Shown one piece after another: positions 2,635-38,512 of a stretch of DNA of 39,344 nt. A model generated the notes under the pieces. It worked only from the letters and a program-made list of their open reading frames with translations. It did no database searches and had not been told where the DNA came from. The stretch spans positions 1-39,344 of the forward strand of contig CALVOC010000002.1 in NCBI GenBank assembly GCA_944350145.1, in the 5' to 3' direction. A program made the position numbers and the translations under genes. Position 1 is the stretch's first letter. Every line of letters starts with the position of its first letter. This DNA is from an uncultured Bacilli bacterium. GTDB taxonomy: Bacteria > Bacillota_I > Bacilli_A > RF39 > UBA660.

Positions 2635-2641
2635 TTTACCC

Positions 2642-3997
2642 CTACTTTCCTAAACAAAATCTTTTGAATATATTGTCTACTAATTCATCTTCATAAGCTT
2701 CTCCAATAATTTGACCTAAATTTTCCCAAGCTTCCCGAAGCTCTATCGCTAGCATATCTACAGGAATATCTTTTTTGTTTTCTTCTATTACATGGTCTAT
2801 GTTTTGAAGTGCTTGTTTTGCTAAAGATATCTGTCTTGTATTTGAAAGATATGTTAAATCTTTATAGCTCATGTCTTCTAATGAAAAAATGTTAATAATT
2901 TCTTGTTTTAATTCTTCTATTCCATTTTTAGTCAATGTACTTCCTTTAATAATTTTTTTTGAAGTCGCGAGGGTTTCTAATTTAGGTTCTAAATCAATTT
3001 TATTTATAAAAATGATTGCTTTTTGATTTTCAATAGATTTTAATAATTCTTTTTCTTCTTGAGTTAATGGTTCATTATTGTTTAATACTAAAATTGTAAT
3101 ATCGGCTTTTTGCTTCATTGCTAAACTTTTTTGAACTCCAATCTTTTCTACTATATCATTGGTTTCTCGGATTCCTGCTGTATCAATAAATTTTAGATTA
3201 ATTCCCTTATATAAAATCTCGCCTTCTACTATATCTCTCGTTGTTCCAGATATATCGGTTACAATTGCTTTATCCTCTTCAAGCAATGCATTTAAAAGGG
3301 AAGATTTACCAACATTTGGACGGCCAATAATTGCAATGGTAATGCCGTTTTTTATAAATTGACCATTTTGTGATTCTTCAACAATTTTTGTTAATTTATT
3401 CTTAATTTCTTTTAAAACTGGAGAGATATTTTCTTTGGTGATTTGAAGTTCATCAATGTATTCTGGATAATCAATATTCACTTCAATATTTGCAAGTAAT
3501 TCAACCATTTTTTCTCGTAATTCTTGAATTAAAGTTGTTGTTTTTCCACTTAATCCATTCATAGCCATTTTACGAGCATTTTCATTTTTTGCTTCTAATA
3601 AATCTTCAATACTTTCTGCTTCTAGTAAATTTATTCTTCCATTTAAAAAAGCACGTTTTGTAAATTCTCCTGGTTCTGCAGGTACAGCTCCATTATCATA
3701 TAATAATTCTAAAATTTTATTTGCGGTTATAGAACCTCCATGGCAATTAATTTCTACTACATCCTCTTTGGTATAGGTTTTTGGGGCTCTCATAAGCATG
3801 ACTAACACTTCATCTATTTTTTCTTTTTCAGTTGTTATAAATCCATAATGAATTGTGTGAGATGGTGCTTGAGAAAATTTTTTATTAGAAAATATTTTAG
3901 AAACAATGTCGACTGCCTCTGGGCCGCTTACTCTTATTATGTTAATTGCACCGATGCCAAGATTATTAGTTGAAATTGCTGCAATTGTAGTATTCAT
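2642..3997 (-). CDS. mnmE: tRNA modification GTPase MnmE (TrmE/ThdF)
   Basis: 451-aa ORF with G-domain motifs GRPNVGKSSLLNAL and DTAGIRET, and the characteristic C-terminal CLGK. Confidence 0.95.
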   Translation of the reverse strand: MNTTIAAISTNNLGIGAINIIRVSGPEAVDIVSKIFSNKKFSQAPSHTIHYGFITTEKEKIDEVLVMLMRAPKTYTKEDVVEINCHGGSITANKILELLYDNGAVPAEPGEFTKRAFLNGRINLLEAESIEDLLEAKNENARKMAMNGLSGKTTTLIQELREKMVELLANIEVNIDYPEYIDELQITKENISPVLKEIKNKLTKIVEESQNGQFIKNGITIAIIGRPNVGKSSLLNALLEEDKAIVTDISGTTRDIVEGEILYKGINLKFIDTAGIRETNDIVEKIGVQKSLAMKQKADITILVLNNNEPLTQEEKELLKSIENQKAIIFINKIDLEPKLETLATSKKIIKGSTLTKNGIEELKQEIINIFSLEDMSYKDLTYLSNTRQISLAKQALQNIDHVIEENKKDIPVDMLAIELREAWENLGQIIGEAYEDELVDNIFKRFCLGK

Positions 3998-4056
3998 AAC
4001 TTCACTTCCATTCGCGGGTATTATACCATTATTTTAAAAAGTTGTAAAAAAAAAAT

Positions 4057-4072
4057 TATTTCCCGGGAAATA
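4057..4072. promoter_or_regulatory. Noc-binding-site-like palindrome TATTTCCCGGGAAATA (perfect 16-mer), intergenic jag/mnmE
   Basis: Exact 16-bp palindrome read in the sequence. It is identical to the B. subtilis Noc-binding site (NBS) consensus, and CCCGGG is otherwise very rare in this AT-rich window. Confidence 0.6.
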
Positions 4073-4082
4073 AAAAAACAGA

Positions 4083-4679
4083 TTACTCTGCTTTTATTAT
4101 TACATGACGATGTGGTTCTTCTCCTTCACTTACCGTTGAAACCCCTTTAAAATTTGCTAATTTATTATGAATTATTCTTCGTTCATAAGAATTCATATCT
4201 TCTAAAACTGCATCCATTTTTGTCTCTCTTACCTCTTTAGCTGTTTTTATAGCTAATCTTTCTAAACTAGCAATTCTTTTTTCTTTATAATTTGCCACAT
4301 CTAAATTTAATTTTATGTGTATTTGCCAATCCAAATGAATTTTTGCTTTTACTAATGTTTCTAAAGCTTTTAATGTTTGTCCATTTTTTCCAATTAATAT
4401 CGGATTATTATTCGAATACATCGTAATATTAAAGATTTTTTCATCAAAACTTGCTTCAAATTGAACTTCTAAACCAAGATTTTCTATTACATCTTGTAAA
4501 TATTTTTTTATTTCTTCAAGAAGTTCTTGATAAGAAATCGCGGTTACTTGATAAGTTTTGCCTTTAAATAATTTTCCTTTTATTTCTTCGCTCTTATATA
4601 AAATTTTATCTGTGTGTAGAAGATTTTTGGTTTCTTCAACTGCTTCAATTAAAGTTTTGGCTTCAACTACGGTTGGCAT
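4083..4679 (-). CDS. jag: Jag/KhpB-type RNA-binding protein (Jag-N, KH and R3H domains)
   Basis: 198-aa ORF immediately downstream of yidC, as in spoIIIJ-jag operons. The C-terminal R3H-like region reads NSYERRIIHNKL. Confidence 0.85.
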   Translation of the reverse strand: MPTVVEAKTLIEAVEETKNLLHTDKILYKSEEIKGKLFKGKTYQVTAISYQELLEEIKKYLQDVIENLGLEVQFEASFDEKIFNITMYSNNNPILIGKNGQTLKALETLVKAKIHLDWQIHIKLNLDVANYKEKRIASLERLAIKTAKEVRETKMDAVLEDMNSYERRIIHNKLANFKGVSTVSEGEEPHRHVIIKAE

Positions 4680-4680
4680 T

Positions 4681-5715
4681 TTACTTCACTTCTTTCTTTT
4701 TTTTCTTTTCAGTTTTTTTTGACTTTTTTTCTTTATGCTTTATGTCTATTATATTTGGATCTTTTTGATCTTTGGCTAATATTTTTTTGATTATGTAATT
4801 TTGAATTACAGCAAATCCATTAATCACAATCCAATAAAATGCTATCGCTGTTGGTAAACTGAAAGAAGCTATCGAAATACTTATGATCATGAACATAAAC
4901 ATAAAGTTCATTTGTTTCATCATTTCATTATTTTGTCCTTGCTTCATAGTATTTTTAAAAGAAATATAAGTTGTTGCTACAATTAAGAAAATTAAAACTA
5001 TATATATATATTGTCCTTCGGCTAAGCCTTTCCAAGGTGTCATTCCTAAATGCATACCTAATAACTCGCCTTCAAAAATGGCTGGGACTTCATTAATTGC
5101 TGATAAAAATGCGAAAAACAATGGAATCTGAATTAAAGCAACTAAACATCCCGAAACTGGATTAATTTTATATTTTTGATAAACCATCATGGTTTCTTGA
5201 CTTTTAGCCATCATAGAATCACTATCTGTTCTTCCGGCATATTTTTTTTCAATTCTAGCTATTTCTGGTTGGGCTTTTTGTAGATTGCTTGATTGTCGCA
5301 TACTTTTTATTGATAAAGGCATTAAAATAACTCGAATTAATAACCCTACTACCATGACTGAAATACCGAAATTATTAAATAAAAATCCAAATTGTAAAAT
5401 AATAAAGGCTAATGGTCGAACTAAAACTGCTTGCCATAATCCGTCATATTTATTTGAAGTCAAATTAAAATCTTTACAAGTTGGTAATTCACTTACTGGT
5501 ACATCTAATTGATCTTGATGTTCTTCATAAATCCTGTATAATTCTGAATCTTTTTCTGGTTGACATAATATATTCTTTTGTACACTCTGGCCAGTAGCCT
5601 CATTTACTAAAATATTTCCATTTTCATCTTTTAAATAATCATCACTGCCACAGCCACTTGCTAAAAAAATCATTGCAATAACAATTAAAGCTAAGATCTT
5701 ATTTTGTTTTTTCAT
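4681..5715 (-). CDS. yidC: YidC/SpoIIIJ/Oxa1-family membrane protein insertase (lipoprotein)
   Basis: 344-aa ORF with lipobox LASGCGS, multiple TM segments and a lysine-rich C-terminal tail. Located between rnpA and jag. Confidence 0.9.
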   Translation of the reverse strand: MKKQNKILALIVIAMIFLASGCGSDDYLKDENGNILVNEATGQSVQKNILCQPEKDSELYRIYEEHQDQLDVPVSELPTCKDFNLTSNKYDGLWQAVLVRPLAFIILQFGFLFNNFGISVMVVGLLIRVILMPLSIKSMRQSSNLQKAQPEIARIEKKYAGRTDSDSMMAKSQETMMVYQKYKINPVSGCLVALIQIPLFFAFLSAINEVPAIFEGELLGMHLGMTPWKGLAEGQYIYIVLIFLIVATTYISFKNTMKQGQNNEMMKQMNFMFMFMIISISIASFSLPTAIAFYWIVINGFAVIQNYIIKKILAKDQKDPNIIDIKHKEKKSKKTEKKKKKEVK

Positions 5716-6043
5716 TTTCTCTCCTTTTTGATGTTAATTTTAAAAAGCTATTTCTCATTTCTTCAAATGATAAATTTTTTGTGCTTTCTTTCATTATTAT
5801 AATATAATCTTCATTGTACTTCAAATCTTTTTTCCACTCATCTAGAATCATTCGCATCCTTCTTTTTAGTTTATTTCTAGTAACGGCATTGCCTAATTTT
5901 TTTGAAACTGCTATACCAAAATGTGGATAGCTATATTTTCCTTTCCTTATATATATAGAAAAATCATGATTCTTAATATATTTTTCTTTTTGAATTATTT
6001 CGGTAAATTCTCGATGTGATTTAATCATTTCTATTTTTTTCAA
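5699..6043 (-). CDS. rnpA: Ribonuclease P protein component RnpA
   Basis: Basic protein containing GNAVTRNKLKRRMR (RNR-like motif). Start preferred at TTG 6043, which has GGAGGG 6 nt upstream. The ORF-track ATG at 6076 lies inside the rpmH terminator hairpin. Confidence 0.85.
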   Translation of the reverse strand: MKKIEMIKSHREFTEIIQKEKYIKNHDFSIYIRKGKYSYPHFGIAVSKKLGNAVTRNKLKRRMRMILDEWKKDLKYNEDYIIIMKESTKNLSFEEMRNSFLKLTSKRRENEKTK

Positions 6044-6061
6044 GGAATTCCCTCCTCCATA

Positions 6062-6087
6062 TAAAAAAAGCCACATAAAAGATGTGG
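6062..6087 (-). terminator. Rho-independent terminator/attenuator between rpmH and rnpA
   Basis: On the minus strand the hairpin is CCACAU-CUUUU-AUGUGG, followed by CUUUUUUUAU, directly after the rpmH stop. Confidence 0.5.
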
Positions 6088-6088
6088 T

Positions 6089-6211
6089 TTATTTACATAA
6101 TACTTTGCGTCCTTTTTTTCTTCTTCTTTTTAAAATATTTGATTCTTTACGAGCAAAAAAACCATGTTTCTTTGCTTTTTTTCTTTTATTAGGTTGATAA
6201 GTTCCGATCAT
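6089..6211 (-). CDS. rpmH: 50S ribosomal protein L34 (short, 40 aa)
   Basis: My own translation of the minus strand gives MIGTYQPNKRKKAKKHGFFARKESNILKRRRKKGRKVLCK, with GGAGGG 7 nt upstream. It is too short to appear in the ORF track. Position is the canonical rpmH-rnpA arrangement facing dnaA. Confidence 0.85.
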   Translation of the reverse strand: MIGTYQPNKRKKAKKHGFFARKESNILKRRRKKGRKVLCK

Positions 6212-6315
6212 GACAATTCCCTCCTTTTTCTAAAGCTCTCTTATTATAATATTAAAAACTAGGAAAAGTCAACAATTTATGGGTTTTCTCCTTAATAATC
6301 TAATATTTTTTTTTA

Positions 6316-6526
6316 TGTGAATAAGTATCCACATTTTAAAAGATGTTTTTTTTCTGTATTTTTGAGTTTTTTCTTTAGTTATACACCTATTCACATCATG
6401 TGGATAACTTTTTTCGACATTATCCACTAATTCACAATTTATTTTTTTGGCTATTGTGAATAATGTGGATAACTGCATTTTTTTCTTTATTTTTCAGCTA
6501 TTATTTTGTTGATAAGTTGTGAATAG
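6316..6526. promoter_or_regulatory. oriC part 1: DnaA-box cluster upstream of dnaA
   Basis: Perfect TGTGGATAA at 6399-6407 and 6464-6472. TGTGAATAA at 6316-6324 and 6455-6463. One-mismatch boxes at 6325-6333, 6420-6428, 6507-6515 and 6518-6526. Located in the rpmH-dnaA intergenic region. Confidence 0.85.
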
Positions 6527-6609
6527 TATGTTAATATACATTTTAGTCTTTTAAAAAGATTTAAAAAAGTGTAGAATATTGTTGACAAGTTTTAAAGCGG
6601 GGTGGTTTC

Positions 6610-8007
6610 ATGGGTGAAAATGATCTTTGGCAATCTGTATTAAATGAGATATATCCAGAAGTAAACTCGGCTTCTTTTCATGCTTGGTTTAATGACTTAA
6701 AACTGATAAAAATTCAGAATAATAAAGTGTTTATACAAGTACCTATGGAGATCCATAAGCGAATTTTAACCACTAATTATTATAATTTAATTGATGATGC
6801 TTTTTATAAAATTACAAATCATAATTATGAATTTGAGTTTTTGCTAAAAGAAGAAATTGAAGAGAAATTTGGTGAAGTAGAACAGAATGTGGATAATGTG
6901 GATAACTTATCTACTGCTATAGTTAAAGAAGAAAAACCAGTCGTTAGAGAAGAGGAAAAATGGGAATCAAATCTTATTAAAGAACTTAATTTTGATAATT
7001 ATATAGTAGGGGATTCTAATCGGCTCGCTAAAACGGCTGGCATGATTGTAGCAGAACATCCCGGTAAAGTTCATAATCCTTTATTTATATATGGAAAGAG
7101 CGGGCTAGGGAAGACTCATTTAATGCATGCGATTGGAAATTATATTGTTGAACACTCAAAAAAAAAGGTGTTATATACTACTAGTGAAATGTTTAAAGAC
7201 GATTATATTAATATTATTAATAATGAAAATAAGGGAAATAATATTCAAGTAGCTGCAGATTTTAAAAAGAAATATCGAGAAGTAGATGTATTAATTATTG
7301 ATGATATACAGTATCTTGTAGGTGCTGAAAAAACTCAACAAGAATTTTTTCATACTTTTAATGCTTTACATCAAGCAAATAAACAGATTATAATAAGTTC
7401 AGATCGAAGTCCAGATGATTTAAAACTCTTGGAGGAACGACTTCGAAGTCGATTTATGTGGGGATTACCTGTGGATATTTATCCACCAGATTTTGAACTT
7501 CGATGTAAGATTTTAAGAGCAAAAATTAAAAATATGTCGATTTCGACTAAGATTGAAGATAGTGTCATTGAGTATATTGCTAATAACTGTCAAAATGATG
7601 TTCGATTTTTGGAAGGAGCTTTAAATCGACTTATGGCTTATACAGCAATGATTGTGCCTGAAAAGGTAGATTTAAACTTTGCAATTGAAGCATTAGCTGA
7701 TTTTGTAAATCACAATATATACACAAGAAGCAGTATTGAAGGAATTCAAAAGGCTGTTGCAGATTACTATAAAATCACGATTGATGATTTAAAAGGAAAG
7801 AAGAGAAGTGCTAATATTGCTTATCCAAGACAAATTGCCATGTATTTATCACGAACTTTAACGGAAGAAAACTTAAATAGAATTGGTTTAGAATTTGGTG
7901 GAAGAGATCATTCAACAGTTATCCACGCTTGTGATAAAATTACTAGTGATTTAAAGACAAATAAGGCTCTGGAGCAACAATTAAAAGAAATACAAAATAA
8001 AATGTAA
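6610..8007 (+). CDS. dnaA: Chromosomal replication initiator protein DnaA
   Basis: 465-aa ORF with AAA+ Walker A GKSGLGKTHL, Walker B LIIDDIQ and a C-terminal DnaA-box-binding domain (GGRDHSTVIHA). Confidence 0.97.
   Translation: MGENDLWQSVLNEIYPEVNSASFHAWFNDLKLIKIQNNKVFIQVPMEIHKRILTTNYYNLIDDAFYKITNHNYEFEFLLKEEIEEKFGEVEQNVDNVDNLSTAIVKEEKPVVREEEKWESNLIKELNFDNYIVGDSNRLAKTAGMIVAEHPGKVHNPLFIYGKSGLGKTHLMHAIGNYIVEHSKKKVLYTTSEMFKDDYINIINNENKGNNIQVAADFKKKYREVDVLIIDDIQYLVGAEKTQQEFFHTFNALHQANKQIIISSDRSPDDLKLLEERLRSRFMWGLPVDIYPPDFELRCKILRAKIKNMSISTKIEDSVIEYIANNCQNDVRFLEGALNRLMAYTAMIVPEKVDLNFAIEALADFVNHNIYTRSSIEGIQKAVADYYKITIDDLKGKKRSANIAYPRQIAMYLSRTLTEENLNRIGLEFGGRDHSTVIHACDKITSDLKTNKALEQQLKEIQNKM
6888..6905 (+). 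promoter_or_regulatory. Two abutting perfect DnaA boxes (TGTGGATAATGTGGATAA) inside the dnaA CDS
   Basis: Read directly. They encode N-V-D-N-V-D-N in the low-complexity linker (domain II region) of DnaA. Confidence 0.55.
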
Positions 8008-8150
8008 TGTGCATAAGTTTTAGAAATGTTCATAGTTATCCACGATAAAATTCGGCATTTTTTCTATTATTTAAGGGATTTTTAAAAGTTATCCACATTA
8101 TCCACCGTATTAATAATATGAATATATAAATATAATAATAAGAAAGAGGG
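8008..8150. promoter_or_regulatory. oriC part 2: DnaA boxes plus AT-rich unwinding element (dnaA-dnaN intergenic)
   Basis: Boxes TGTGCATAA 8008-8016, TTATCCACG 8036-8044, TTATCCACA 8089-8097 and the abutting TTATCCACC 8098-8106. These are followed by a roughly 40-bp, almost pure A/T stretch (8107-8145) before the dnaN RBS. Confidence 0.8.
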
Positions 8151-8156
8151 AAAGTT

Positions 8157-9275
8157 ATGAAATTTGCAATTGATAAAAACATATTATTAGAAAATTTAAA
8201 TAATGTTATTCGAGGAATATCTACAAAAAACGTAATTCCTGTATTAAATGGTATAAAATTTGAATTAAAAGACACAGGGTTAACTTTAACTGCTAGTGAT
8301 AGTGAACTTACTATTGAATCTTTTATTGAAAGCAAGTTTATTCGTAATATTGAAAGTACAGGAACTATCATTATAAGTAGTAAGTATATTTTAGATATTA
8401 TTCGTAAAATGCCTAGTGATGTTATTAACTTTGAAATGATGGATAGTTTAAAAATTAAAATTTATTCTGATTTTAATCAATATAATTTAAATTGTTTGGA
8501 TCCAAGTGAATATCCTAGTATTAAGTTGATAAGTCATAAAGATCCTATTACTATAAAGGCTAATGTTTTGAAAGAACTAATTAATCAAACTTCTTTTGCT
8601 ATTTCAACTCAAGAGTTAAGACCTATTTTAACTGGTTTAAACATGAAAATTAATGGAGATATCTTTGAAGTTATTGCTACAGACTCTTATCGTTTAGCTA
8701 AAAAGAATATTAAATTAGATGTTCCTGTTGAAACAGATGTTAATATAGTTATTCCTGGTAAAAATATTACAGAATTAGAACATATCTTAGTAGATGATGA
8801 AGATGTTTATATGAATGTATTTAATAACCGAGTTTTATTTCAATATAAAAACATTAAGTTTCAAACTAATATTTTGTCTGGTAGCTATCCAAATACTTCA
8901 AATTTAATTCCAACTGAATTTGAAATAATTGTTCAAACTAAGAAAAGTGAATTTATGGGTGCAGTTGATCGTGCCGCTTTATTAACACAAGGAAAAGATA
9001 AAAATATTATTAAAATGAAAATTGAAAATAAAGAAATGATTATTAATTCTTATGCTTCTGAAATAGGTAAAACAGAGGAGAGAGTAGCAATTGATACAGA
9101 TGAAAAATCTAATATAGATATATCTTTTAGTGCTCGTTATATGATGGATGCTTTAAAAACTATTAAAGATGAAGATATTTTAATTCTTTTAAATAATGAT
9201 GTTAAACCTATAGTACTTAAATCTTTAACAGATGAAAGTTTAATCCAATTAATTTTACCAATTAAAACTTATTAA
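8157..9275 (+). CDS. dnaN: DNA polymerase III beta sliding clamp DnaN
   Basis: 372-aa ORF directly after dnaA with typical clamp length and N-terminus (MKFAIDKNILLENL). Confidence 0.95.
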   Translation: MKFAIDKNILLENLNNVIRGISTKNVIPVLNGIKFELKDTGLTLTASDSELTIESFIESKFIRNIESTGTIIISSKYILDIIRKMPSDVINFEMMDSLKIKIYSDFNQYNLNCLDPSEYPSIKLISHKDPITIKANVLKELINQTSFAISTQELRPILTGLNMKINGDIFEVIATDSYRLAKKNIKLDVPVETDVNIVIPGKNITELEHILVDDEDVYMNVFNNRVLFQYKNIKFQTNILSGSYPNTSNLIPTEFEIIVQTKKSEFMGAVDRAALLTQGKDKNIIKMKIENKEMIINSYASEIGKTEERVAIDTDEKSNIDISFSARYMMDALKTIKDEDILILLNNDVKPIVLKSLTDESLIQLILPIKTY

Positions 9276-9276
9276 G

Positions 9277-9299
9277 AGCTGTCAAATGACAGTTTTTTT
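9277..9299 (+). terminator. Weak rho-independent terminator after dnaN
   Basis: Hairpin AGCTGTC-AAAT-GACAGTT followed by a T7 run. Confidence 0.4.
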
Positions 9300-9380
9300 G
9301 TTGATCTTCTTTTTTCGACATATTTTCTCTTATAAATGTGATAGTCTAAAAACAATTTTTATGTAAGTGGGGGGAATTTT

Positions 9381-9842
9381 ATGAGAAAAGAATATGAAAT
9401 CAATGAAGAAACTTTAGCAATAATTGCTGTGGATAAGAACTATTCTGAGGTTTATGAGTTAAACGATCACTATGTTATTGAAAAAGGATCAAATAAAATT
9501 ATGGAAGATAGTTGCCGTTATTTTGGAAGTTCATTGGATGGCAGACGAAAAGGGACCGAATATATGATAGGCGTAAATTATAAAGCTCCTATTATTGTTG
9601 AAGAAACAAAAGAAATTATTTTTTTTCCGACATCTACATCTAGAGAAAATTGTAATTGGATTGGACTTAAACATATTAAATCCTATTATAGAGAAGGGGA
9701 AATTTTATTTATTGAGTTTGAAAATGATGTGAAAATTCCTTTAAGTGTTTCCTATGGGATAATCGATAATCAAGTTTTGCGTGCAAGTCGGTTAGAAAGT
9801 GCTTTACGTGGGCGAAAAATAGCAAAAAAATCTATTAAATAA
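9381..9842 (+). CDS. ComK-family protein (competence transcription factor-like), short form of 153 aa
   Basis: Block similarity to B. subtilis ComK as I recall it. SCRYFGSSLDGRRKGTEYMIGVNYKAPIIVEETKEIIFFPTSTSRENCNWIG aligns with SCRFFGSSYAGRKAGTYEVTKISHKPPIMVDPSNQIFLFPTLSSTRPQCGWI. SVSYGIIDNQVLRASRL aligns with PISYNSFENQVYRTAWL. It has its own RBS (GGGGGG) and terminators on both sides. Confidence 0.75.
   Translation: MRKEYEINEETLAIIAVDKNYSEVYELNDHYVIEKGSNKIMEDSCRYFGSSLDGRRKGTEYMIGVNYKAPIIVEETKEIIFFPTSTSRENCNWIGLKHIKSYYREGEILFIEFENDVKIPLSVSYGIIDNQVLRASRLESALRGRKIAKKSIK
9428..9436 (+). promoter_or_regulatory. Perfect DnaA box TGTGGATAA inside the comK-like CDS
   Basis: Read directly. It encodes A-V-D-K. 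Confidence 0.4.
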
Positions 9843-9867
9843 GTCATTTTTGTGTTATAATTATTTT

Positions 9868-9900
9868 AGGTATAGGAGTATTAGTATACCTTTATTTTTT
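9868..9900 (+). terminator. Rho-independent terminator after the comK-like gene
   Basis: Hairpin AGGTATA-(10 nt)-TATACCT followed by TTTATTTTTT. Confidence 0.6.
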
Positions 9901-9928
9901 CTGTAAATAAAAATTAAGGGGCAAAAAT

Positions 9929-11041
9929 ATGAAAGTAGAGTTCTTACAATTGTATAATTTTCGAAATTATGATCAATTAACTATTTCTTTTCATCCACAC
10001 CTTAATCTTATTTATGGAAAGAATGGTTCAGGAAAAACAAATTTAGTAGAAGCAATTTATGTTCTTGGTTTAACAAGAAGCTTTCGATTGGTGGGAGATA
10101 AAACTCTTATTAAAGATGGGGCTTCTATGTGTAAAATTATGGGACGTATTGTGGATAAGTACTCTACAGATTATCAAATTTTACTAAATAAAGAAGGAAA
10201 AAAAGTTCAAATTAATCATGATAAAGTTGCAAAAATTTCAGATTACATTTCCAAAATTCCGATTGTTTTGTTTCATCCTGATGATTTGAGATTCATTAAA
10301 GATACTCCAAGTACCCGTCGAAAAAATGTAAATATTTCTATTTCAGAATTAGATTTGGTTTATTTACGATATTTAAATGATTATAACAAATTATTGAAGC
10401 AACGTAATTCTTATTTAAAACAGATGATTGTTAATGGAAATACTTCAAGTAATTACTTAGAAATTTTAACTGATAAATTAATTGATTATGGCATGAATAT
10501 TCATTTGAAAAGAAAGGAATTTTTAGACTTAATTAACGAATATATTGGTTGTTTTTATCAAAAAATTACGGGGGTTTCTGGTTTAAAATTAAAATATGTT
10601 TCTTCTTATAATGATTTAAGTAAAGATGAGTTGACTGATTTGTATGCTAAAATGCTTGCTAAGGATATTAATTTTGGTAAGACCAATGTTGGCATTCATA
10701 TGGATGATTTGAAGTTTTCTTTAAATGATAAAGATTTAAAAGATTATGGGAGTGAAGGTCAACAAAAAAATGCGATTATTGCTTATAAATTTAGTGAATT
10801 AGAAATATTTAAGAAAATGAAAGGAAATTATCCTATTTTAATACTTGATGATTTGTTTAGTGAATTAGATTTAGAAAAAGTTCAGAATATTTTGAAGTTA
10901 CTTAAAGAAGAAGTTCAAACATTTATTACTACTACTGATGTTACAAAATTTTCTTTTTTGACATCTTTTTCTTACAAACAAATTCATATTCAAAATGGAA
11001 AAGTAGTGGAGGAGAGTGAACATGAAAGAAGAAAAGAATGA
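9929..11041 (+). CDS. recF: DNA replication and repair protein RecF
   Basis: 370-aa ORF with Walker [11 protein letters not shown], signature-like GSEGQQK and Walker B ILILDD. Confidence 0.95.
10150..10158 (+). promoter_or_regulatory. Perfect DnaA box TGTGGATAA inside the recF CDS
   Basis: Read directly. It encodes I-V-D-K. Confidence 0.4.
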
Positions 11042-12951: not shown

Positions 12952-15417
12952 ATGGATCGTTTAGAAAAAAATAATATTGTTACAGAAGTTAGTAAGTCCT
13001 TTGTTGATTATTCTGTAAGTGTTATCACCTCACGTGCGTTGCCAGATTTACGAGATGGTTTAAAACCTGTTCATCGTAGAATTTTATTTTCTATGTATCA
13101 ATCTGGATATACGAATGATAAACAACATAAGAAATGTGCTCGTATTGTCGGGGATGTTATGGGTAAATTTCATCCTCATGGAGATTCTTCTATTTATGAA
13201 GCTATGGTTCGAATGGCTCAAGATTTCAGTTATCGTTATCCACTTATTGATGGTCATGGTAATTTTGGTAATATGGATGGTGATGGAGCAGCGGCAATGC
13301 GTTATACCGAGGCTCGATTGGCAAAAATTTCTTCAGAATTACTAAGGGATATTAATAAAAATACTGTAGATATGACTCCTAATTTTGATGAATTAGAGGA
13401 AGAACCAGTCGTTTTACCTAGTAGATTTCCAAATATTTTAGTAAATGGTACAATGGGAATTGCTGTAGGTATGGCAACAAATATTCCACCTCATAATTTA
13501 GGCGAGGTAATTGATGGATGTGTTGCATATATTGATAATCCAGAGATCGATACAATGGGATTAATGCAATATATTAAGGGACCAGATTTTCCAACAGGCG
13601 CTACAATTTTAGGAAATAGTGGTATTAAAAAAGCTTATGAAACCGGACGCGGCACTATTACTATTCGTAGTAAAGCCAGTATTGAAGAGAAAAATGGTCG
13701 TTTTCAAATCGTTTTTGATGAAGTTCCTTATGGTGTGAATACCTTAGAGTTGAAGAATAAGGTTGCTGAACTTGTTCATAATAAAGTAATAGAGGGAATT
13801 TCAGATTATCATTCTGATTTAAAGGATGGTATTAAAATTACAATAACTTTAAAAAGGGATGCTAATCCACAAGTTGTTTTAAATAATTTGTATAAACATA
13901 CATCTTTCCAAATTTCTTATGGAATTATTTTATTAATGATTGATCAAGGAGTTCCTAAAACGTTAGGATTGAAAGATATAATAAGTAAATACATTGATTT
14001 TCAACGAGAAGTAATTGTAAGAAGAACTCGTTTTGATTTAGAAAAAGCAGAAGCTCGTGTTCATATTTTACAAGGATTGAAGATAGCTTTAGATCATATT
14101 GATGAAGTAATTAAGATTATTCGCGGAAGTAGAACAGATGTTGAGGCTAAAGAGACTTTAATGAGTCGTTTTGGGCTTTCTGAAATTCAAAGCGATGCTA
14201 TTTTGGAAATGAGATTACGTCGTTTAACTGGTTTAGAAAAGGATAAAATTGAAGCCGAATTAGCTGAATTATTAAAGAAAATTGAAGAATATAAGGCTAT
14301 TTTAGCAAGTGATGAAAAGGTATTAGCTATTATTCGAGCAGAATTACTAGAAATAAAGGATAAATATGCAGATGAACGTCGTACAAATATTGATATGACT
14401 GCAATTGAGTATATTGAGGATGAATCCTTAATTCCAGAAGAAAATATCATGGTGGCTTTAACTAATAAGGGTTATATTAAAAGAACTACTACAGATACCT
14501 TTAAAGCACAAAATAGAGGCGGAGTTGGAGTTAAAGGTATGGCCACAAATGAAGAAGATTTTGTTGAACATTTGCTAAACTTATCCACACATGATTATGT
14601 ATTATTCTTTACAAATAAAGGTAAGGTTTATCGTTTGAAAGGTTATGAGATTCCTGAATTTAGTCGTCAATCTAAGGGAATTCCAGTTATTAACTTATTG
14701 CAAATTGATAAAGATGAATCTATTAATTCTATAATTCGTATTGATAAAGATAATAAGTATAAGTATTTATTATTTGCAACGAAGAAGGGTATTGTTAAGA
14801 AAACTTCTATTGAGGAGTTTGATAATATTCGAACTAATGGTAAGATTTGTATAACATTGAGAGAATCTGATGAATTAATTAGTGTTCGTAAAACTACTGG
14901 TAATGATCTTATTTTACTAGGTTCTAGTGCTGGTAGAATGGTAAAATTTAATGAAAATGAACTTAGAGTAATGGGAAGAACTGCAAGTGGTGTACGGGGT
15001 ATCAATTTAGATGGCACTGACTGCATTGGTGCTGAAATAGCTTCGGATGATGACAAAATTTTAATAGTAACTGAAAAAGGGTACGGAAAGCAAACAAATG
15101 TTCGTGAATACCGCCAGACAAGTCGTGGTAGTAAAGGGGTAAAGGCATTAAATATTACAGATAAAAATGGATCTATTGCTTCCTTTAAATTAGTTGGTGA
15201 AAATAGTGATGTTGTTATTATAACTAATACTGGAATGCTGATTCGTTTACCTTTGGATCAAGTTTCTACTTTAGGTCGTGTTACCCAGGGTGTGCGATTG
15301 ATTCACTTGAAGGATAACCAATCTGTTTCTACTGTTAGTATTGTGGAACATGAAGAAAAAGTGGATTACGACGTAGATGAATCAAATAATTCTAATAATG
15401 AAGAGAAATCTGAATAA
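12952..15417 (+). CDS. gyrA: DNA gyrase subunit A
   Basis: 821-aa ORF with the active-site region [10 protein letters not shown], the QRDR-like [13 protein letters not shown] and C-terminal beta-pinwheel repeats. Confidence 0.97.
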
Positions 15418-15430
15418 GATTTCTTTTTTA

Positions 15431-15446
15431 TGTTTCACGTGAAACA
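15431..15446. promoter_or_regulatory. parS-1 TGTTTCACGTGAAACA
   Basis: Perfect match to TGTTNCACGTGAAACA. Confidence 0.85.
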
Positions 15447-15456
15447 TATCTATAAA

Positions 15457-15472
15457 TATTTCCCGGGAAATA
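15457..15472. promoter_or_regulatory. NBS-like palindrome TATTTCCCGGGAAATA (perfect), between parS-1 and parS-2
   Basis: Exact 16-mer. It starts 11 nt after the end of parS-1 and is followed 5 nt later by TGTGAATAA (15478-15486). Confidence 0.6.
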
Positions 15473-15490
15473 AAATATGTGAATAACCAA

Positions 15491-15506
15491 TGTTCCACGT
15501 GAAACA
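15491..15506. promoter_or_regulatory. parS-2 TGTTCCACGTGAAACA
   Basis: Perfect match, identical to the B. subtilis consensus site. Confidence 0.85.
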
Positions 15507-15606
15507 TTGATTTATAATTTTAAACTTATTAAGCGAAAAATATTTATTTTTTTAATAAAAAAGAAATTTATTTTATTGTAGTATACATATAAAAGTTGAT
15601 AACTAA

Positions 15607-15622
15607 TGTTTCACGTGAAACG
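15607..15622. promoter_or_regulatory. parS-3 TGTTTCACGTGAAACG
   Basis: 15/16 match (last base G). Confidence 0.75.
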
Positions 15623-15709
15623 TATGAATTATTAAATAAAAATTATTTAATTATATTTTAGATTATTTTTCTTTTAAATCTTATAAATCCTTTATGTTTA
15701 TAACCATGA

Positions 15710-15725
15710 TGTTTCACGTGAAACA
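15710..15725. promoter_or_regulatory. parS-4 TGTTTCACGTGAAACA
   Basis: Perfect match. Confidence 0.85.
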
Positions 15726-15835
15726 TTCTATTTCTTGTTAGAAATAATGTAAAAATTTATTTTTTTTGATTCATTCTTATTTAAAAAATTCGTTTTTAAT
15801 TATAAATAATTAAATAATAAAGTGTATAACTGTTA

Positions 15836-15851
15836 TGTTCCACGTGAAACA
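15836..15851. promoter_or_regulatory. parS-5 TGTTCCACGTGAAACA
   Basis: Perfect match. Confidence 0.85.
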
Positions 15852-16019
15852 TAATACAAATTGTTATATAAACCATTAAATAGAGTATAATAAAAAATAT
15901 GTAAGTTTTTTTGTTAAAATTAAAGTTTAAATCAAAAAAATTGCATTTTTTCATACTATTTATTTAATCATAAATTTTTAAAATTAACTAATATGTAAAA
16001 TAGAAGTTTATAACTATGA

Positions 16020-16035
16020 TGTTTCACGTGGAACA
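16020..16035. promoter_or_regulatory. parS-6 TGTTTCACGTGGAACA
   Basis: Perfect match on the opposite strand (reverse complement is TGTTCCACGTGAAACA). Confidence 0.85.
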
Positions 16036-16043
16036 TATGTAAT

Positions 16044-16059
16044 TATTTCCTGGGAAATA
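16044..16059. promoter_or_regulatory. NBS-like palindrome TATTTCCTGGGAAATA (15/16), next to parS-6
   Basis: One C-to-T change from the perfect 16-mer. It is followed 2 nt later by TGTGAATAA (16062-16070). Confidence 0.45.
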
Positions 16060-16122
16060 TTTGTGAATAACAATTTTTTTAACATTTTTAAACAAAATTG
16101 AGGTATTTTTGTGTATAACCAA

Positions 16123-16138
16123 TGTTTCACGTGAAACG
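16123..16138. promoter_or_regulatory. parS-7 TGTTTCACGTGAAACG
   Basis: 15/16 match (last base G). Confidence 0.75.
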
Positions 16139-16185
16139 TTGATAATTTATGCTTGCATTTTTACTTTATTTTTGATAATCTTAAT

Positions 16186-16262
16186 TTGTGCAACAAATAT
16201 ATTGTAATCTGGTCAGGATCGGAAGATAGCAGCCACGTCAATCCCTATTTGTGTGCACTTTT
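16186..16262 (+). ncRNA. ffs: Signal recognition particle RNA, minimal 4.5S-like form (about 75 nt)
   Basis: Conserved helix-8 core CUGGUCAGGAUCGGAAGAUAGCAGCCACG, comparable to E. coli 4.5S GGUCAGGUCCGGAAGGAAGCAGCC, with a GGAA tetraloop. The closing stem pairs GUGCAACAAAUA with UAUUUGUGUGCAC and is followed by a U-run. It lies beside tadA and upstream of dnaX, close to the tadA-scr-dnaX arrangement in Bacillus. The ends are approximate. Confidence 0.7.
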
Positions 16263-16279
16263 TTATTGGAGGAATTTAA

Positions 16280-16693
16280 GTGGATAAATATATAGATGTG
16301 TGTTTGGATGAAGCCAGGATTAGTTATCAACAATCTGATGTTCCAATTGGAGCAATTATTGTAAAAAATGGTGAAATTATTGCAAAATCGCATAATACTA
16401 GGGAAATGGATAAGTCTATTCTTGGTCATGCTGAAATTAATGCAATTTTAAGTGCTTCTAAACTATTAAATCGCTGGAATTTGAGTGATTGTGAGCTTTA
16501 TGTAACTTTAAAACCTTGTTCTATGTGTATGGAAGTTATTAAACAGTCCAGAATAGGCAAAATTTACTATTTATTAGACAAATTAGATTATAAAAAAGAG
16601 TTTACTAAAAGTGAATTTATTAAAATTAATGAAAAAGAAAGCGAACAAACGTATCAAAAAATGCTTTCAGATTTTTTTAAAGATAAAAGATAA
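16280..16693 (+). CDS. tadA: tRNA-specific adenosine deaminase TadA
   Basis: GTG start with GGAGG upstream. CDA zinc motifs HAEINAI and PCSMCMEVI. Confidence 0.9.
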   Translation: MDKYIDVCLDEARISYQQSDVPIGAIIVKNGEIIAKSHNTREMDKSILGHAEINAILSASKLLNRWNLSDCELYVTLKPCSMCMEVIKQSRIGKIYYLLDKLDYKKEFTKSEFIKINEKESEQTYQKMLSDFFKDKR

Positions 16694-18397: not shown

Positions 18398-18694
18398 ATG
18401 AATATGCAAAGTATAATGGCTCAAGCACAAAGAATGCAAAGAGATTTACAAAAGAAAAAAGATGAAATTAATGCTCAATTATTTCCTGGGAAATATGAAT
18501 TTGTTGAAGTTACCTTGAATGGAAAAAAGGAAATGGTTCGTTGTAAGATTAATAAAGAATCAATTGATGCTTCAGATATGGAATTATTAGAAGATTTTAT
18601 TGTTTTGGCTACGAAAGATGCTATTCAAAAAATTGACAAAGAGTTTCAAGCTAAAATGGGTCAATACGCAGGAATGCTTGACGGTTTGATGTAA
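18398..18694 (+). CDS. ybaB: Nucleoid-associated protein YbaB/EbfC (YaaK)
   Basis: 98-aa ORF between dnaX and recF's partner recR, starting MNMQSIMAQAQRMQRDLQKKKDE, which is typical of the family. Confidence 0.9.
   Translation: MNMQSIMAQAQRMQRDLQKKKDEINAQLFPGKYEFVEVTLNGKKEMVRCKINKESIDASDMELLEDFIVLATKDAIQKIDKEFQAKMGQYAGMLDGLM
18480..18495. promoter_or_regulatory. NBS-like palindrome TATTTCCTGGGAAATA (15/16) inside ybaB
   Basis: Read directly. It encodes L-F-P-G-K-Y. Confidence 0.4.
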
Positions 18695-19301: not shown

Positions 19302-19341
19302 AAATCCGATTTTTTTCATATCTTTTAATAGAGGGAATTCT

Positions 19342-19530
19342 ATGATAAAGAAAATATCTGCTATTTTGAAAAAAGTTGTGTTTGCTTTTTTATTATTATA
19401 TGGTTTAAATTATTTTATTTCTTCTTTACATATTTATATTCCAATTAATGTTATTACCGTTGGTATTGTCAGTTTTCTTGGAGTTCCAGGGCTTTCTTCT
19501 TTAATTATTTTGTATTTTATAGTAAAATAA
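19342..19530 (+). CDS. bofA: Pro-sigma-K processing inhibitor BofA-like small membrane protein
   Basis: Internal ATG 19342 with an AGAGGGA RBS. SLHIYIPINVITVGIVSFLGVPGLSSLIILYFIV resembles B. subtilis BofA SLGIHVPINLVTTAISGILGIPGIAALVVIKQFII. Same position after recR as in Bacillus. Confidence 0.7.
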   Translation: MIKKISAILKKVVFAFLLLYGLNYFISSLHIYIPINVITVGIVSFLGVPGLSSLIILYFIVK

Positions 19531-20394: not shown

Positions 20395-21182
20395 TGAATA
20401 TTTATGGTGTTGTTTTTCGAGATCGTGGAAAGATTTATTATTTTAATGGTGAGAATAAAAGAATTCCTAATCGAGTTACAGTTATAGTTGAAACTGAAAA
20501 AGGTGAACAATTTGGACGAGTTGTTTCTAGATTAAGCAAAGAAAAAGTTTTGAGTTATGAAGGAGAAATGAAAAAGATTCTTCGGATTGCAACCAAAAAA
20601 GATTATGAACACTATTTGACAAATTTAAAAGATGCTGAGGAAGCACTAAAAAAAGCTCGTTTGTTTAGTAAAGAATTGGGATTAACTATGAATTTTATTG
20701 ATGCTAATTTCACTTTTGATCGTAAACAATTGTTGTTTAATTTTTTTGCAGATGAAAGGGTAGATTTTCGTGAATTGGCCAAGAAACTAGCTAGTATTTA
20801 TCATACTCGAATTGAATTAAGGCAAGTTGGAGCTCGTGATAAAGCTGAGCATATTGGTGGAATAGGTATATGTGGCCGTAATCTTTGCTGTGCTAGTTGT
20901 CTAACTCATTTAGAATCTGTTACTATGAATATGGCTAAAAATCAAAATTTAGCTTTAAATCCTTCTAAAATAAACGGAGCCTGTGGTCGATTGTTGTGTT
21001 GTTTAGCATATGAAGATACAGAATATTTACGATGTTCTAAAGGAATGCCAAGTGTCGGTCAAGAAATAGAAACTTCATTTGGAAAAGGAAAAGTAGTAAG
21101 TATTGACATTTTAAATCGAAAGTATAAAATTTTAGTTCAAGATGAGGTAAAGGAGATTTATTTAGATGAAAAAGCAACTTAA
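20394..21182 (+). CDS. ricT: PSP1-domain protein RicT (YaaT)
   Basis: 262-aa ORF with a PSP1 C-terminal region and cysteine cluster (CGRNLCCASCL, CGRLLCCLAYE). Follows holB as in Bacillus. Confidence 0.85.
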   Translation: MNIYGVVFRDRGKIYYFNGENKRIPNRVTVIVETEKGEQFGRVVSRLSKEKVLSYEGEMKKILRIATKKDYEHYLTNLKDAEEALKKARLFSKELGLTMNFIDANFTFDRKQLLFNFFADERVDFRELAKKLASIYHTRIELRQVGARDKAEHIGGIGICGRNLCCASCLTHLESVTMNMAKNQNLALNPSKINGACGRLLCCLAYEDTEYLRCSKGMPSVGQEIETSFGKGKVVSIDILNRKYKILVQDEVKEIYLDEKAT

Positions 21183-21876
21183 TTGGTTGTTTGATTATCC
21201 CAATCTAAAAATATATCAATATGAAGAAGGTTTTAAATTTTCTTTAGATTCTATTTTATTAGCTGAATTTGCCGAAATAAGAAAAAATGATAACAAAATA
21301 TTAGATTTATGTACGGGTAATGCTGTTATTCCTATTATTTTAAATTATAAATATCATAAGTCTATTATTGCGGTCGAAGTTCAGCCACAAATTGTAGAGC
21401 TTGCTAAGGCTTCAATTTATGAAAATCATATGGAAAATGCTATTCAAATAGTAGAAAAAAATGTGTTGGAATTGGAAAATTATTTCCCGGGAAATAATTT
21501 TGATGTTCTTTTATCAAATCCACCATATTTTAAATTTCATCATGAAGATTTTTTAAATCATAACAAATTAAAACAAATTGCCCGTCATGAAGTTTTAATT
21601 GATTTAGAATCTTTAATTCGGATTGCTTCTATTTTATTGAAAACTAAAGGAAGATTTTATTTGGTTCATATTCCAAATCGTTTGGATGAAATAATTGTTT
21701 TTGCACATAAATATCATTTTGGCATAAAAAAGGTTCAATTTATCCATTCTAAAATGGAAGAATCTCCAATTATTGTTTTAGTATGTTTAGTTAAAAATGG
21801 TAAATTTGGGTGTATTGTTAAACCTCCTATTTCAATAAATGGTTTAGAAACGTATCAAAATTTATTTAAGAATTGA
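21166..21876 (+). CDS. tRNA1(Val) (adenine37-N6)-methyltransferase-like (YabB/TrmN6 family)
   Basis: N6-adenine methyltransferase motif LSNPPYF and a SAM-binding region ILDLCTGNAV. The position is equivalent to yabB. Confidence 0.8.
   Translation: MKKQLNWLFDYPNLKIYQYEEGFKFSLDSILLAEFAEIRKNDNKILDLCTGNAVIPIILNYKYHKSIIAVEVQPQIVELAKASIYENHMENAIQIVEKNVLELENYFPGNNFDVLLSNPPYFKFHHEDFLNHNKLKQIARHEVLIDLESLIRIASILLKTKGRFYLVHIPNRLDEIIVFAHKYHFGIKKVQFIHSKMEESPIIVLVCLVKNGKFGCIVKPPISINGLETYQNLFKN
21481..21496. promoter_or_regulatory. NBS-like palindrome TATTTCCCGGGAAATA (perfect) inside the methyltransferase CDS
   Basis: Read directly. It encodes Y-F-P-G-N. Confidence 0.55.
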
Positions 21877-26287: not shown

Positions 26288-26487
26288 TAATCAATGAGGA
26301 AGGAAAGAGTATATAATTATTTCTTTATTAGAGAGTTTATGGTTGGTGAAAATAAACAAAGGAAAATTATAGAAGATGGCTCTGGAGTTGAAACGTTATC
26401 TCGCGTTAAGGGTAAAGTGCATGAATTATCATGAAATAAGGTGGTACCACGGGTTTTTATTCGTCCTTATGTTCATGATTTTTTTAT
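26288..26487 (+). promoter_or_regulatory. T-box riboswitch leader (probable Met specifier AUG) controlling metG
   Basis: AGAGAG/GGUUGGUG stem I elements. Candidate specifier AUG at 26376-26378. Conserved T-box sequence AAAUAAGGUGGUACCACGG at 26434-26452. The terminator helix pairs AUCAUGAAAUAAGG with CCUUAUGUUCAUGAU and is followed by a U7 run. Confidence 0.8.
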
Positions 26488-26504: not shown

Positions 26505-28055
26505 ATGGAAAAGTTTTATATTACAACCGCGATTGCTTACGCATCTGGAAAACCACATATTGGCAATACTTATGAAATTGTTTTGGCAGACGCAATTGCT
26601 CGTTATAAAAGATTAAAAGGTTTTGATGTTTATTTTCAAACCGGAACAGATGAACATGGTGAAAAAATTGAGGGAAAGGCTCTAGAAAATGGTCAAACTC
26701 CTCAAGAATTTGTCGATAATATTTCCCGGGAAATAAAAAGAATTTGGGATGTGATGAATACTAGTTATGATAAATTTGTACGAACTACAGATGAACATCA
26801 TAAAAAAATAGTACAGCATATTTTTCAAAAACTATATGATCAAGGTGATATTTATTTGGATCAATATGAGGGATGGTATTGTACTCCTTGTGAGTCGTTT
26901 TGGACAGATAATCAACTTGTAGATGGAAAATGCCCAGATTGTGGTAGAGAAGTAAAAAAAAGAAGTGAAGAATCCTATTTTTTTAGAATGTCTAAGTATC
27001 AAGATCGGTTGATTGAATATATTGAAAATCATCCAGAATTTATTCAGCCAGAAGCTCGTAAAAATGAAATGATTAATAATTTTTTGAAACCAGGTTTACA
27101 AGATTTGTGTGTTTCTAGAACTTCTTTTGATTGGGGTATTCGAGTTCCTTTTAATGATAAGCATATCGTTTATGTTTGGATTGATGCTTTGTCTAACTAT
27201 ATTACTAATATTGGTTATGATACTGATGGAGGAGATGATACTTTTAAAAAATGGTGGCCTGCTGATTTACATTTAGTTGGTAAGGATATTATTCGTTTTC
27301 ATACTATTTATTGGCCAATTTTATTAATGGCATTAGATTTACCTTTACCTAAACAAGTTTTTGGGCATCCTTGGCTTTTGATGAATAACGATAAAATGAG
27401 TAAGAGTAAAGGAAATATTATGTATGCAGATGATTTAGTTTCGTTGTTTGGAGTTGATGCAATTCGGTATTATTTGTTGCATGAAATTCCTTTTCAAAGT
27501 GATGGAACGATTTCTTATGAGCTTATCATTGAACGTATTAATAGTGATTTAGCTAATATTTTAGGAAATTTAGTAAATCGAACAATTTCAATGGCTAAGA
27601 AATATTTTGACGGAGAAATTGAAAATAAAAAAATTTTAGAAGATATGGACTCTTCATATATTGAAATGATCAATAGTTTAGAAGAACGCGTTGAAAAAAG
27701 AATGTTTAAATTAGAGATAGGTTCTGCACTTGATGAAATTTTTGATACTTTACGAGCTAGTAATAAATATATAGATGATACTATGCCTTGGAGTCTTGCT
27801 AAGGAAGAAACAAAACGAGATCGTTTAGAAACTGTATTATATAATTTATTAGAAGGTATTCAAGTTTGTGCTGTTTTTCTAAAGCCATTTTTGCCCGCTA
27901 CTTCAGATGAAATTTTTAGACAATTACAAACGAATAATTTATCGTTTTGCTTTATAAATGATCATAAATATTGTGTATTGGATCCGACTCCTATTTTTAT
28001 GAGAATTGATAGTTCTAAAAAACTTGCTGAAATAGCAGCGAATAAGGAAGAGTAA
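26505..28055 (+). CDS. metG: Methionine--tRNA ligase
   Basis: The real start is ATG 26505 (MEKFYITTAIAYASGKPHIGN). Class I HIGN and KMSKS motifs are present, with zinc knuckles CTPC and CPDC. The ORF-track start at 26376 runs through the T-box leader. Confidence 0.95.
   Translation: MEKFYITTAIAYASGKPHIGNTYEIVLADAIARYKRLKGFDVYFQTGTDEHGEKIEGKALENGQTPQEFVDNISREIKRIWDVMNTSYDKFVRTTDEHHKKIVQHIFQKLYDQGDIYLDQYEGWYCTPCESFWTDNQLVDGKCPDCGREVKKRSEESYFFRMSKYQDRLIEYIENHPEFIQPEARKNEMINNFLKPGLQDLCVSRTSFDWGIRVPFNDKHIVYVWIDALSNYITNIGYDTDGGDDTFKKWWPADLHLVGKDIIRFHTIYWPILLMALDLPLPKQVFGHPWLLMNNDKMSKSKGNIMYADDLVSLFGVDAIRYYLLHEIPFQSDGTISYELIIERINSDLANILGNLVNRTISMAKKYFDGEIENKKILEDMDSSYIEMINSLEERVEKRMFKLEIGSALDEIFDTLRASNKYIDDTMPWSLAKEETKRDRLETVLYNLLEGIQVCAVFLKPFLPATSDEIFRQLQTNNLSFCFINDHKYCVLDPTPIFMRIDSSKKLAEIAANKEE
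26720..26735. promoter_or_regulatory. NBS-like palindrome TATTTCCCGGGAAATA (perfect) inside metG
   Basis: Read directly. It encodes N-I-S-R-E-I, a different codon phase from the copies in ybaB and the methyltransferase gene. Confidence 0.55.
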
Positions 28056-37605: not shown

Positions 37606-37689
37606 TCACCACCTAAATGTAGATTGTATTTCATATATCAAAATCCTCCTATTTCTTGTGTTTTTCTTTTGCTTTTGATATAATGAAAT

Positions 37690-38456: not shown

Positions 38457-38512
38457 TCAATCCCCTCTTTCATGATATATTATAACGTTTTCAACGAAAT
38501 TTTACAACAAAA

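Follow-up and report, generated by a model that had tools for sequence, protein, structure and literature searches.

ParB and Noc are textbook paralogs, cytidine triphosphate (CTP)-dependent DNA clamps with different sites and different jobs, ParB in chromosome segregation and Noc in division control, and chromosome diagrams usually keep the sites apart as two sets. The replication-origin region of an uncultured Bacilli bacterium of the gut (genome GC content 28%), represented here by a 39,344-nucleotide stretch of contig CALVOC010000002.1 that we call the window, raises the question of what it means when the two sets are mixed: between gyrA and tadA, an array of parS centromere sites is interleaved with palindromes of the Noc-binding site (NBS) type. 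parS and NBS lie side by side here, the species encodes a Noc-type reader, and the pairing recurs at one syntenic site in many species with an enrichment, proximity, and phasing that go beyond chance. We lean, without great assurance, toward the view that the palindromes are true Noc-binding sites within the parS array and that a Noc-type paralog and a presumed ParB would share centromere DNA.

parS and NBS in the gyrA-tadA tract

We scanned the window for parS with TGTTNCACGTGNAACA, allowing up to two mismatches. All seven sites found lie at 15431-16138 (0.06 expected; none of 100 shuffles reached seven), with the 16-bp palindrome tGTTNCACGTGAAACa packed seven times into 708 bp, 9 kb from dnaA and the switch in GC skew. 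The array occupies a non-coding tract of ~860 bp past the gyrA stop codon at 15417, ~9 kb to the right of oriC, and is followed by the genes for the signal recognition particle (SRP) RNA and tadA. parS-1 (TGTTTCACGTGAAACA, 15431-15446) stands directly past the gyrA stop and terminator. A perfect NBS, TATTTCCCGGGAAATA (NBS-1, 15457-15472), begins 10 bp after it and ends 18 bp before parS-2 (15491-15506). There follow parS-3 (15607-15622, one mismatch), parS-4 (15710-15725), parS-5 (15836-15851), and parS-6 (16020-16035). The second array NBS, TATTTCCTGGGAAATA (NBS-2, 16044-16059), lies 8 bp after parS-6 and has one mismatch (CCTGGG), the same variant as at 18480.

The array palindromes fit the NBS pattern tATTTCCCGGGAAATa, and the core of the NBS oligonucleotide of PMC8429893 is identical. 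Their identification as NBS in the initial annotation holds up on the exact match to the published 16-bp NBS (PMC8429893, PMC7383237) and on the overrepresentation of the class in the window, which holds six NBS, two in the array and four elsewhere, where 0.33 would be expected (none of 100 shuffles reached six). Because the 862-bp intergenic region is base-identical, with zero mismatches, in four independent assemblies from different samples, the array is no assembly artifact.

Three DnaA-box-like elements, all on the plus strand, accompany these sites. TGTGAATAAC at 15478-15487 contains the 9-mer TGTGAATAA, which is one mismatch from TGTGGATAA and of the same type as 9-mers in oriC at 6316-6473. 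An exact copy stands at 16062-16071, and TGTGTATAAC at 16110-16119 lies 3 nt before parS-7 (16123-16138, one mismatch). Exact copies of TGTGAATAAC in the window start at 15478, 16062, and 19545. The left module reads parS-1, NBS, TGTGAATAAC, caa, parS-2; the right one reads parS-6, NBS, TGTGAATAAC, 38 nt, TGTGTATAAC, caa, parS-7, and seems to be the left module in diverged form. The coordinates given in the initial annotation for parS, NBS, and DnaA-box-like elements check out throughout. Its view that the two three-part modules bracket the array does not strictly hold, because the seventh parS, the true right end, lies beyond the right-hand module.

The four scattered NBS of the window differ in setting. 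A perfect copy at 4057-4072 is intergenic between jag and mnmE and is also present in conspecific contigs. The CCTGGG variant at 18480-18495 lies inside ybaB, at a position kept in relatives. Two more perfect copies are at 21481-21496, inside a 236-aa open reading frame (ORF; 21166-21876) and likewise kept in relatives (frame NYFPGNN), and at 26720-26735, inside a T-box-regulated 559-aa ORF. The T-box leader of this last ORF is at 26288-26471.

Recurrence and chance in related species

We next consider how widely the pairing recurs. One genome per species was scanned for a parS followed, after a gap of 1-30 nt, by an NBS. The adjacency was found in at least 119 species (at least 119 loci), and all matches listed sit at the same syntenic spot, with gyrA as the left anchor and tadA-dnaX on the right. 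Almost all of the listed records are uncultured Bacilli, Erysipelotrichaceae, Tenericutes, or Mollicutes metagenome-assembled genomes (MAGs) or 'Clostridium sp. CAG' genomes, a group that, going by the literature, would correspond to RFN20, RF39, and related orders. The listed arrays contain 1-11 parS and 1-11 NBS each, and among them are perfect tandem repeats of a composite unit, such as (P-10-N-22)x8, (P-24-N-19)x9, (P-33-N-19)x6, and (P-10-N-131/292)x11, where P is parS and N is NBS. Six loci (L013, L071, L041, L103, L010, and L054) carry near-perfect arrays of a parS+NBS unit in 6-11 copies with periods of ~74-84 bp or longer, which suggests that parS and NBS were recently amplified together.

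The sites of 120 listed arrays fall into two discrete classes, 479 parS and 330 NBS; only 4 are hybrids at a single position, and half-site chimeras do not occur. This bears on whether the palindromes are Noc-type sites at all. NBS and parS differ at two positions per half-site, and CCCGGG is a common restriction site, so that decayed parS or restriction/modification targets built on a CCCGGG core might be imagined in their place. Intermediates between the two classes are nearly absent, however (4 of 813 sites), the conserved footprints reach 22-24 bp (parS caATGTTTCACGTGAAACATtg, NBS aAATTATTTCCCGGGAAATAATTt), far past the 6 bp of a restriction target, and the species has a gene for a Noc-type reader; we hold both of these explanations to be highly improbable.

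In the related loci, NBS occur at 3.2 per kb in the arrays, 0.22 per kb in other non-coding DNA, and 0.065 per kb in coding DNA. The listed loci were selected for one adjacency, and the density comparison therefore needs a control for ascertainment; a raw 36-fold enrichment was downgraded after controls for ascertainment, non-coding preference, and tandem duplication. With one NBS per locus removed and copies with similar flanks collapsed, 72 flank-distinct extra NBS remained against 7-20 expected. We then compared proximity with random placement conditioned on the selection rule of the scan: for 164 of the 203 distinct NBS, a parS is no more than 35 bp away, as against 147.7 ± 4.1 in the simulation (z = 4; reached in none of 300 simulations). 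Neighbors up to 60 bp apart are mostly heterotypic (343 parS-NBS, 53 parS-parS, and 18 NBS-NBS pairs). Moreover, the gaps between parS and NBS are periodic, with a best period of 10.5 bp (tested with clustered spacers against a smoothed-envelope null, p is about 0.001, phylogeny being not fully corrected for), and preferred gaps of ~9.4 + 10.5n bp place the sites ~2.4, 3.4, and 4.4 turns apart, center to center. Gaps between neighboring parS showed no periodicity in the listed arrays.

A second sample consisted of eight relatives chosen solely on TadA homology and the length of the contig, without regard to NBS. All eight have the parS array; three have NBS within it (1, 1, and 4 copies), and five have none. 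Because only three of the eight arrays hold NBS, we regard their presence there as facultative. In total, the eight arrays contain 6 NBS in about 7.6 kb, where ordinary non-coding density predicts ~1.7. The initial annotation had proposed orthologous arrays as a test and had taken absence of NBS from the arrays of close relatives as evidence against its reading: the juxtaposition does occur in many species, and more than half of the relatives sampled blind to NBS lack it, which in part counts against that reading. The idea, put forward there for testing, that NBS are kept at array edges fails. The number and position of NBS turn over between close relatives, and in the closest relatives of the window, array NBS may stand at either side or at both.

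The main rival to selection is incidental co-location, in which the NBS are ordinary scattered Noc sites that gather in the array only because it is the most extensive stretch of non-coding, repeat-prone DNA close to the origin, and the juxtaposition with parS is unselected and without specific function. Several of the results above weigh on its side. NBS prefer non-coding DNA anyway, being ~3.4-fold denser in its ordinary stretches than in coding DNA; tandem duplication can amplify a chance NBS along with parS, and a single unit duplicated in tandem accounts for many multicopy cases; the positions of NBS change from one close relative to the next; and three of eight arrays is close to the per-array expectation from general non-coding NBS density, ~18% per 1-kb array. 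Further, the excess in proximity is modest (81% observed vs. 73% simulated), and the periodicity carries the phylogenetic limit given above. Incidental co-location explains the patchiness of the arrangement, but it does not explain the helical phasing, the proximity above the conditioned simulation, the heterotypic neighbors, or the excess of independent copies, both among the flank-distinct extra NBS and in the unbiased sample. We consider it possible, though short of probable.

Outside the arrays, the two classes part company. Of the parS in the listed loci, 536 of 537 are in the array, whereas NBS also occur elsewhere, with 61 further copies outside the arrays. Among the NBS elsewhere, 28 lie in the variable dnaX linker (L003-L121; e.g., L004:3792, L008:4702, and L088:3685), ~1.6-1.8 kb from the array, where the same DNA is read in two frames, as IISREI or YFPGN. 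NBS in two dnaX frames point to selection on DNA rather than on protein. The NBS in ybaB (window 18480) is kept in all of the unbiased relatives whose sequence reaches ybaB.

The Noc-like protein and the presumed readers of the two sites

If these are Noc-binding sites, a reader should be encoded in the genome. No ParB-family gene is present in the window (no GERR motif; tblastn). At its left edge, bases 1-73 diverge from other conspecific contigs exactly at the stop of rsmG (24-776, minus strand), the ORF gaining 16 codons, and the three contigs that share exactly this 250-aa RsmG variant break off just past rsmG, no more than about 27 bases on; bases 1-73 are probably a strain-specific insertion or repeat boundary. 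Contigs 99.25% identical to window positions 74-9972 run past rsmG and encode, ~100 bp beyond its stop, one 409-aa ParB-family protein (L122:4254-5483 in a conspecific contig, just left of window position 1). The noc gene that the initial annotation predicted beyond rsmG is thus found where it was placed. The order rsmG-noc is kept, a convergent penicillin-binding protein (PBP) gene comes next, and no soj/spo0J (parA/parB) stands beside noc; the same lone Noc-like gene recurs in a relative whose RsmG is 75% identical. Noc-like orthologs are labeled Candidatus Ventrenecus.

Among solved structures, the 409-aa protein matches Noc (7ng0/7nfu, E 6e-57) better than Spo0J (4e-51). Its top NCBIfam model is nucleoid_noc (TIGR04285) at 286.2 bits, below the cut-off of 315, as against 182 bits for parB_part. 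It has the Pfam domains ParB_N and HTH_ParB and the GERR and ENxQR motifs, and its AlphaFold2 (AF2) model comprises a ParB-type N-domain, a helix-turn-helix (HTH), and a Noc-like C-terminal domain. The residues that set specificity are Q173, K179, K184, and R201 in Noc and R, T, A, and G in ParB (Jalal 2020, PMC7383237), and Q173 and R201 with a single Lys at 179 or 184 suffice for NBS specificity (PMC7383237). The HTH of the 409-aa protein, GVSQSSIANKLRLLNL...ISERHAR, gives Q173, K179, N184, and R201. Because Q173, K179, and R201 fit this rule, we predict that the protein binds NBS specifically.

An alternative is that this protein is the sole ParB homolog and binds both parS and NBS. One ParB-family gene is visible near the origin, with no parA/parB beside it, in low-GC relatives as well, and position 184 is Asn where Lys is usual. 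Nevertheless, T or S is the residue at 201 in most dual-specificity variants (PMC7383237), unlike the R201 found here, and Q173, R201, and K179 predict NBS-specific binding. A homodimer that accepts both half-sites should also tolerate half-site chimeras, of which there are none in 813 sites. Finally, parS is confined to the array while NBS is scattered, and these different distributions point to two readers. We consider a single reader very unlikely.

The second reader would be a canonical ParB (R173, G201 type), and a search of the window and of ~60 kb surrounding oriC in this species did not recover its gene; no ParB gene turned up either in the ~20 kb around noc in this species or, among low-GC relatives, at up to ~10 kb from noc. 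Because no ParB gene was found, the two-protein step is one that we infer. A low-GC ParB-like match in L156 proved to be an XRE-type HTH membrane protein, and a published study of RFN20/RF39 gene content is silent, together with its supplement, on spo0J and soj. The missing ParB gene, the nucleoid_noc score below cut-off, and a feature of the N terminus, described next, all count against a shared ParB/Noc centromere.

Only 16 residues precede box I, which leaves no N-terminal amphipathic membrane helix, an element needed for Noc function in Bacillus subtilis (PMC8429893). N-terminal extensions in some gene calls (MLQYYIDRIGIKGLILV...) were rejected: they translate the ribosome-binding site, and in this species a stop codon interrupts them. 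The suggestion in the initial annotation that Noc might tether the centromere to the membrane consequently loses its defining element. The protein also reads ENIQRRNL in place of the ENLQRE[ED]L of ParB and Noc, with Arg at the position of the catalytic Glu in the close relatives of the window and Lys in one more distant relative. The replaced Glu corresponds to ParB E111, mutation of which abolishes CTP hydrolysis (PMC8494293), and by this substitution the Noc-like protein could be a naturally hydrolysis-deficient clamp.

The protein contains a ~140-residue variable, disordered linker. At residues 258-272, this linker holds an invariant island, PNKFFNFLEDEAANM (motif PNKFFNFLEDE), predicted to form a short helix, and further invariant islands of the protein are IEVLDDF, MPFLF, and DPMDSVIKLDPNY. 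The PNKFFNFLEDE island is similar to SRFFGLGEKE, the peptide that targets B. subtilis Noc to the membrane from its N terminus, and one may speculate that it substitutes for the missing membrane helix. The hydrophobic moment of the linker motif is near that of the B. subtilis Noc N terminus, a comparison that we set aside as not discriminating.

DnaA-box-like elements and a proposed two-clamp centromere

The DnaA-box-like elements raise the further possibility of a three-part replication-control module, in which DnaA would be titrated or recruited beside ParB and Noc, as the module idea of the initial annotation implies. A DnaA box here would be a 9-mer that matches TTATCCACA with at most one mismatch and is conserved at the locus in relatives. 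The window array has two exact TGTGAATAA and one TGTGTATAA, and the oriC of the window has the same box types. The listed arrays hold 42 exact TGTG[GA]ATAA 9-mers vs. 4.7 in shuffles, and near relatives of the window have an ATAAC-ending box beside most parS. In one relative (L015:380-1500), TGTGAATAAC or TGTGGATAAC (TGTG[GA]ATAAC) directly follows five of seven parS as a fused parS-DnaA-box unit, and the L163 array has four exact boxes, all on one strand. S. aureus Noc, moreover, restrains replication initiation (PMC5540599). Against such a module, exact boxes occur in 23 of 120 listed arrays (two or more in 12) and in three of the eight unbiased arrays; clade-wide, they have no fixed position beside parS (35 of 467); most ATAAC elements of the window differ from the DnaA box at two positions; and the element tracks parS, not NBS. 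We judge a replication-control module of this kind unlikely. An obligatory parS-NBS-box module is rejected as a general feature on the box counts and positions, the elements standing beside parS only in near relatives and in a minority of other species. By its distribution in these sequences, the DnaA-box-like element is a lineage-specific companion of parS, not of NBS.

Clusters of DnaA boxes outside oriC are present in B. subtilis. Like those clusters, the 9-mers described here are enriched close to the origin in non-coding DNA that does not belong to oriC; unlike them, they are missing from most arrays, usually number one or two where present, and are degenerate in many copies.

The surroundings of the array are those of a replication origin. 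The oriC region upstream of dnaA (6077-6609) contains DnaA boxes and the GC-skew switch, the skew changing sign near 6 kb of the window. On the minus strand, the gene order is rsmG, mnmG, mnmE, jag, yidC, and rnpA; on the plus strand, it is dnaA, dnaN, comK, recF, gyrB, and gyrA (12952-15417). The small SRP RNA gene (ffs, 16179-16274, plus strand) lies between the array and tadA (16280-16693, plus strand), and the order continues with dnaX, ybaB, and recR. comK (9381-9842), between dnaN and recF, has a conserved placement in related loci. Homologs of spoIIR and bofA (L122:12964-13470 and L157:6063-6251; window about 19340-19530) indicate that this small-genome lineage probably sporulates. At 36556-38847, just after rplM-rpsI, a phage-type integrase, a cI-like S24 repressor, and a Cro-like HTH protein coincide with a flip in GC skew and probably mark where a prophage or integrative element begins.

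The components of the parS-NBS arrangement are known; their arrangement appears new. No account of adjacency or interleaving of parS and NBS turned up in the open literature covered (primary Noc papers, the S. aureus Noc chromatin immunoprecipitation sequencing study, and a ParABS review), in keeping with what the initial annotation had supposed. In the Noc-NBS nucleoid occlusion system of B. subtilis and S. aureus, the identical 16-bp NBS is scattered origin-proximally (Wu 2009; PMC4331003; PMC8429893; PMC5540599), whereas here it is interleaved with parS in one array, in some cases as phased composite repeats. The Noc-like protein shares with B. subtilis and S. aureus Noc the rsmG-adjacent gene, Q173, K179, R201, the GERR CTP motif, and the Noc-like C-terminal domain, and it differs from them in the absent N-terminal helix, Asn184, Arg for Glu, the ~140-residue linker, and the lack of an adjacent soj-spo0J. 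Like the centromeres of B. subtilis Spo0J and Caulobacter ParB (PMC7333895), the array has consensus parS near oriC, where ParB would presumably nucleate in a CTP-dependent manner. Unlike them, it packs 7 parS into 708 bp at a fixed spot between gyrA and tadA, interleaved with sites for a paralogous clamp, and no parAB operon is visible near noc.

We propose the following model. The two palindromes would be Noc-binding sites inside an origin-proximal parS centromere array; one Noc-type ParB paralog, encoded after rsmG, would read NBS, and a canonical ParB encoded elsewhere would read parS. Both CTP-dependent clamps would load 8-18 bp apart and, as they slide, share a few kilobases of DNA, so that the centromere would carry a nucleoprotein domain made up of ParB and Noc together. 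Scattered origin-proximal NBS may have entered the gyrA-tadA array repeatedly and been amplified with parS as composite units. The spacing of ~2.4, 3.4, and 4.4 turns is consistent with simultaneous binding of both dimers. Collision or competition between ParB and Noc clamps, as the initial annotation foresaw, is plausible by analogy with roadblock experiments (PMC7053999), as is their mutual hindrance or trapping. Because the arrangement is facultative, it would modulate the centromere rather than be required for it.

More tentatively, and with rather low expectation, we suggest that in these small-genome gut Bacilli a Noc without N-terminal membrane helix and catalytic Glu has been repurposed as a centromere partner of ParB, the two assembling together on interleaved sites in a bipartite two-clamp centromere with half-integer-turn spacing. 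In sporulating B. subtilis, RacA anchors the origin through ram sites; its protein family and DNA motif differ from those here, and the likeness is one of concept only: in each case a further protein binds DNA sites concentrated close to the origin or centromere and could fasten this region to the cell envelope. The present lineage has sporulation genes as well (spoIIR, bofA). If our suggestion is true, a two-clamp centromere could replace ParA-driven segregation or, by way of the conserved linker motifs, couple this region with the envelope or divisome.

The arrays are natural substrates for two-clamp loading, blocking, or cooperation, with the site types alternating every 10-30 bp in helical phase across many species, and they allow testing of whether Noc acts at the centromere. 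The Noc-like protein, for its part, offers a naturally occurring Noc variant that lacks both the catalytic Glu and the canonical membrane helix. Even if the juxtaposition is incidental, these cells tolerate closely spaced loading sites for the two clamps, which constrains models of how such clamps load and spread.

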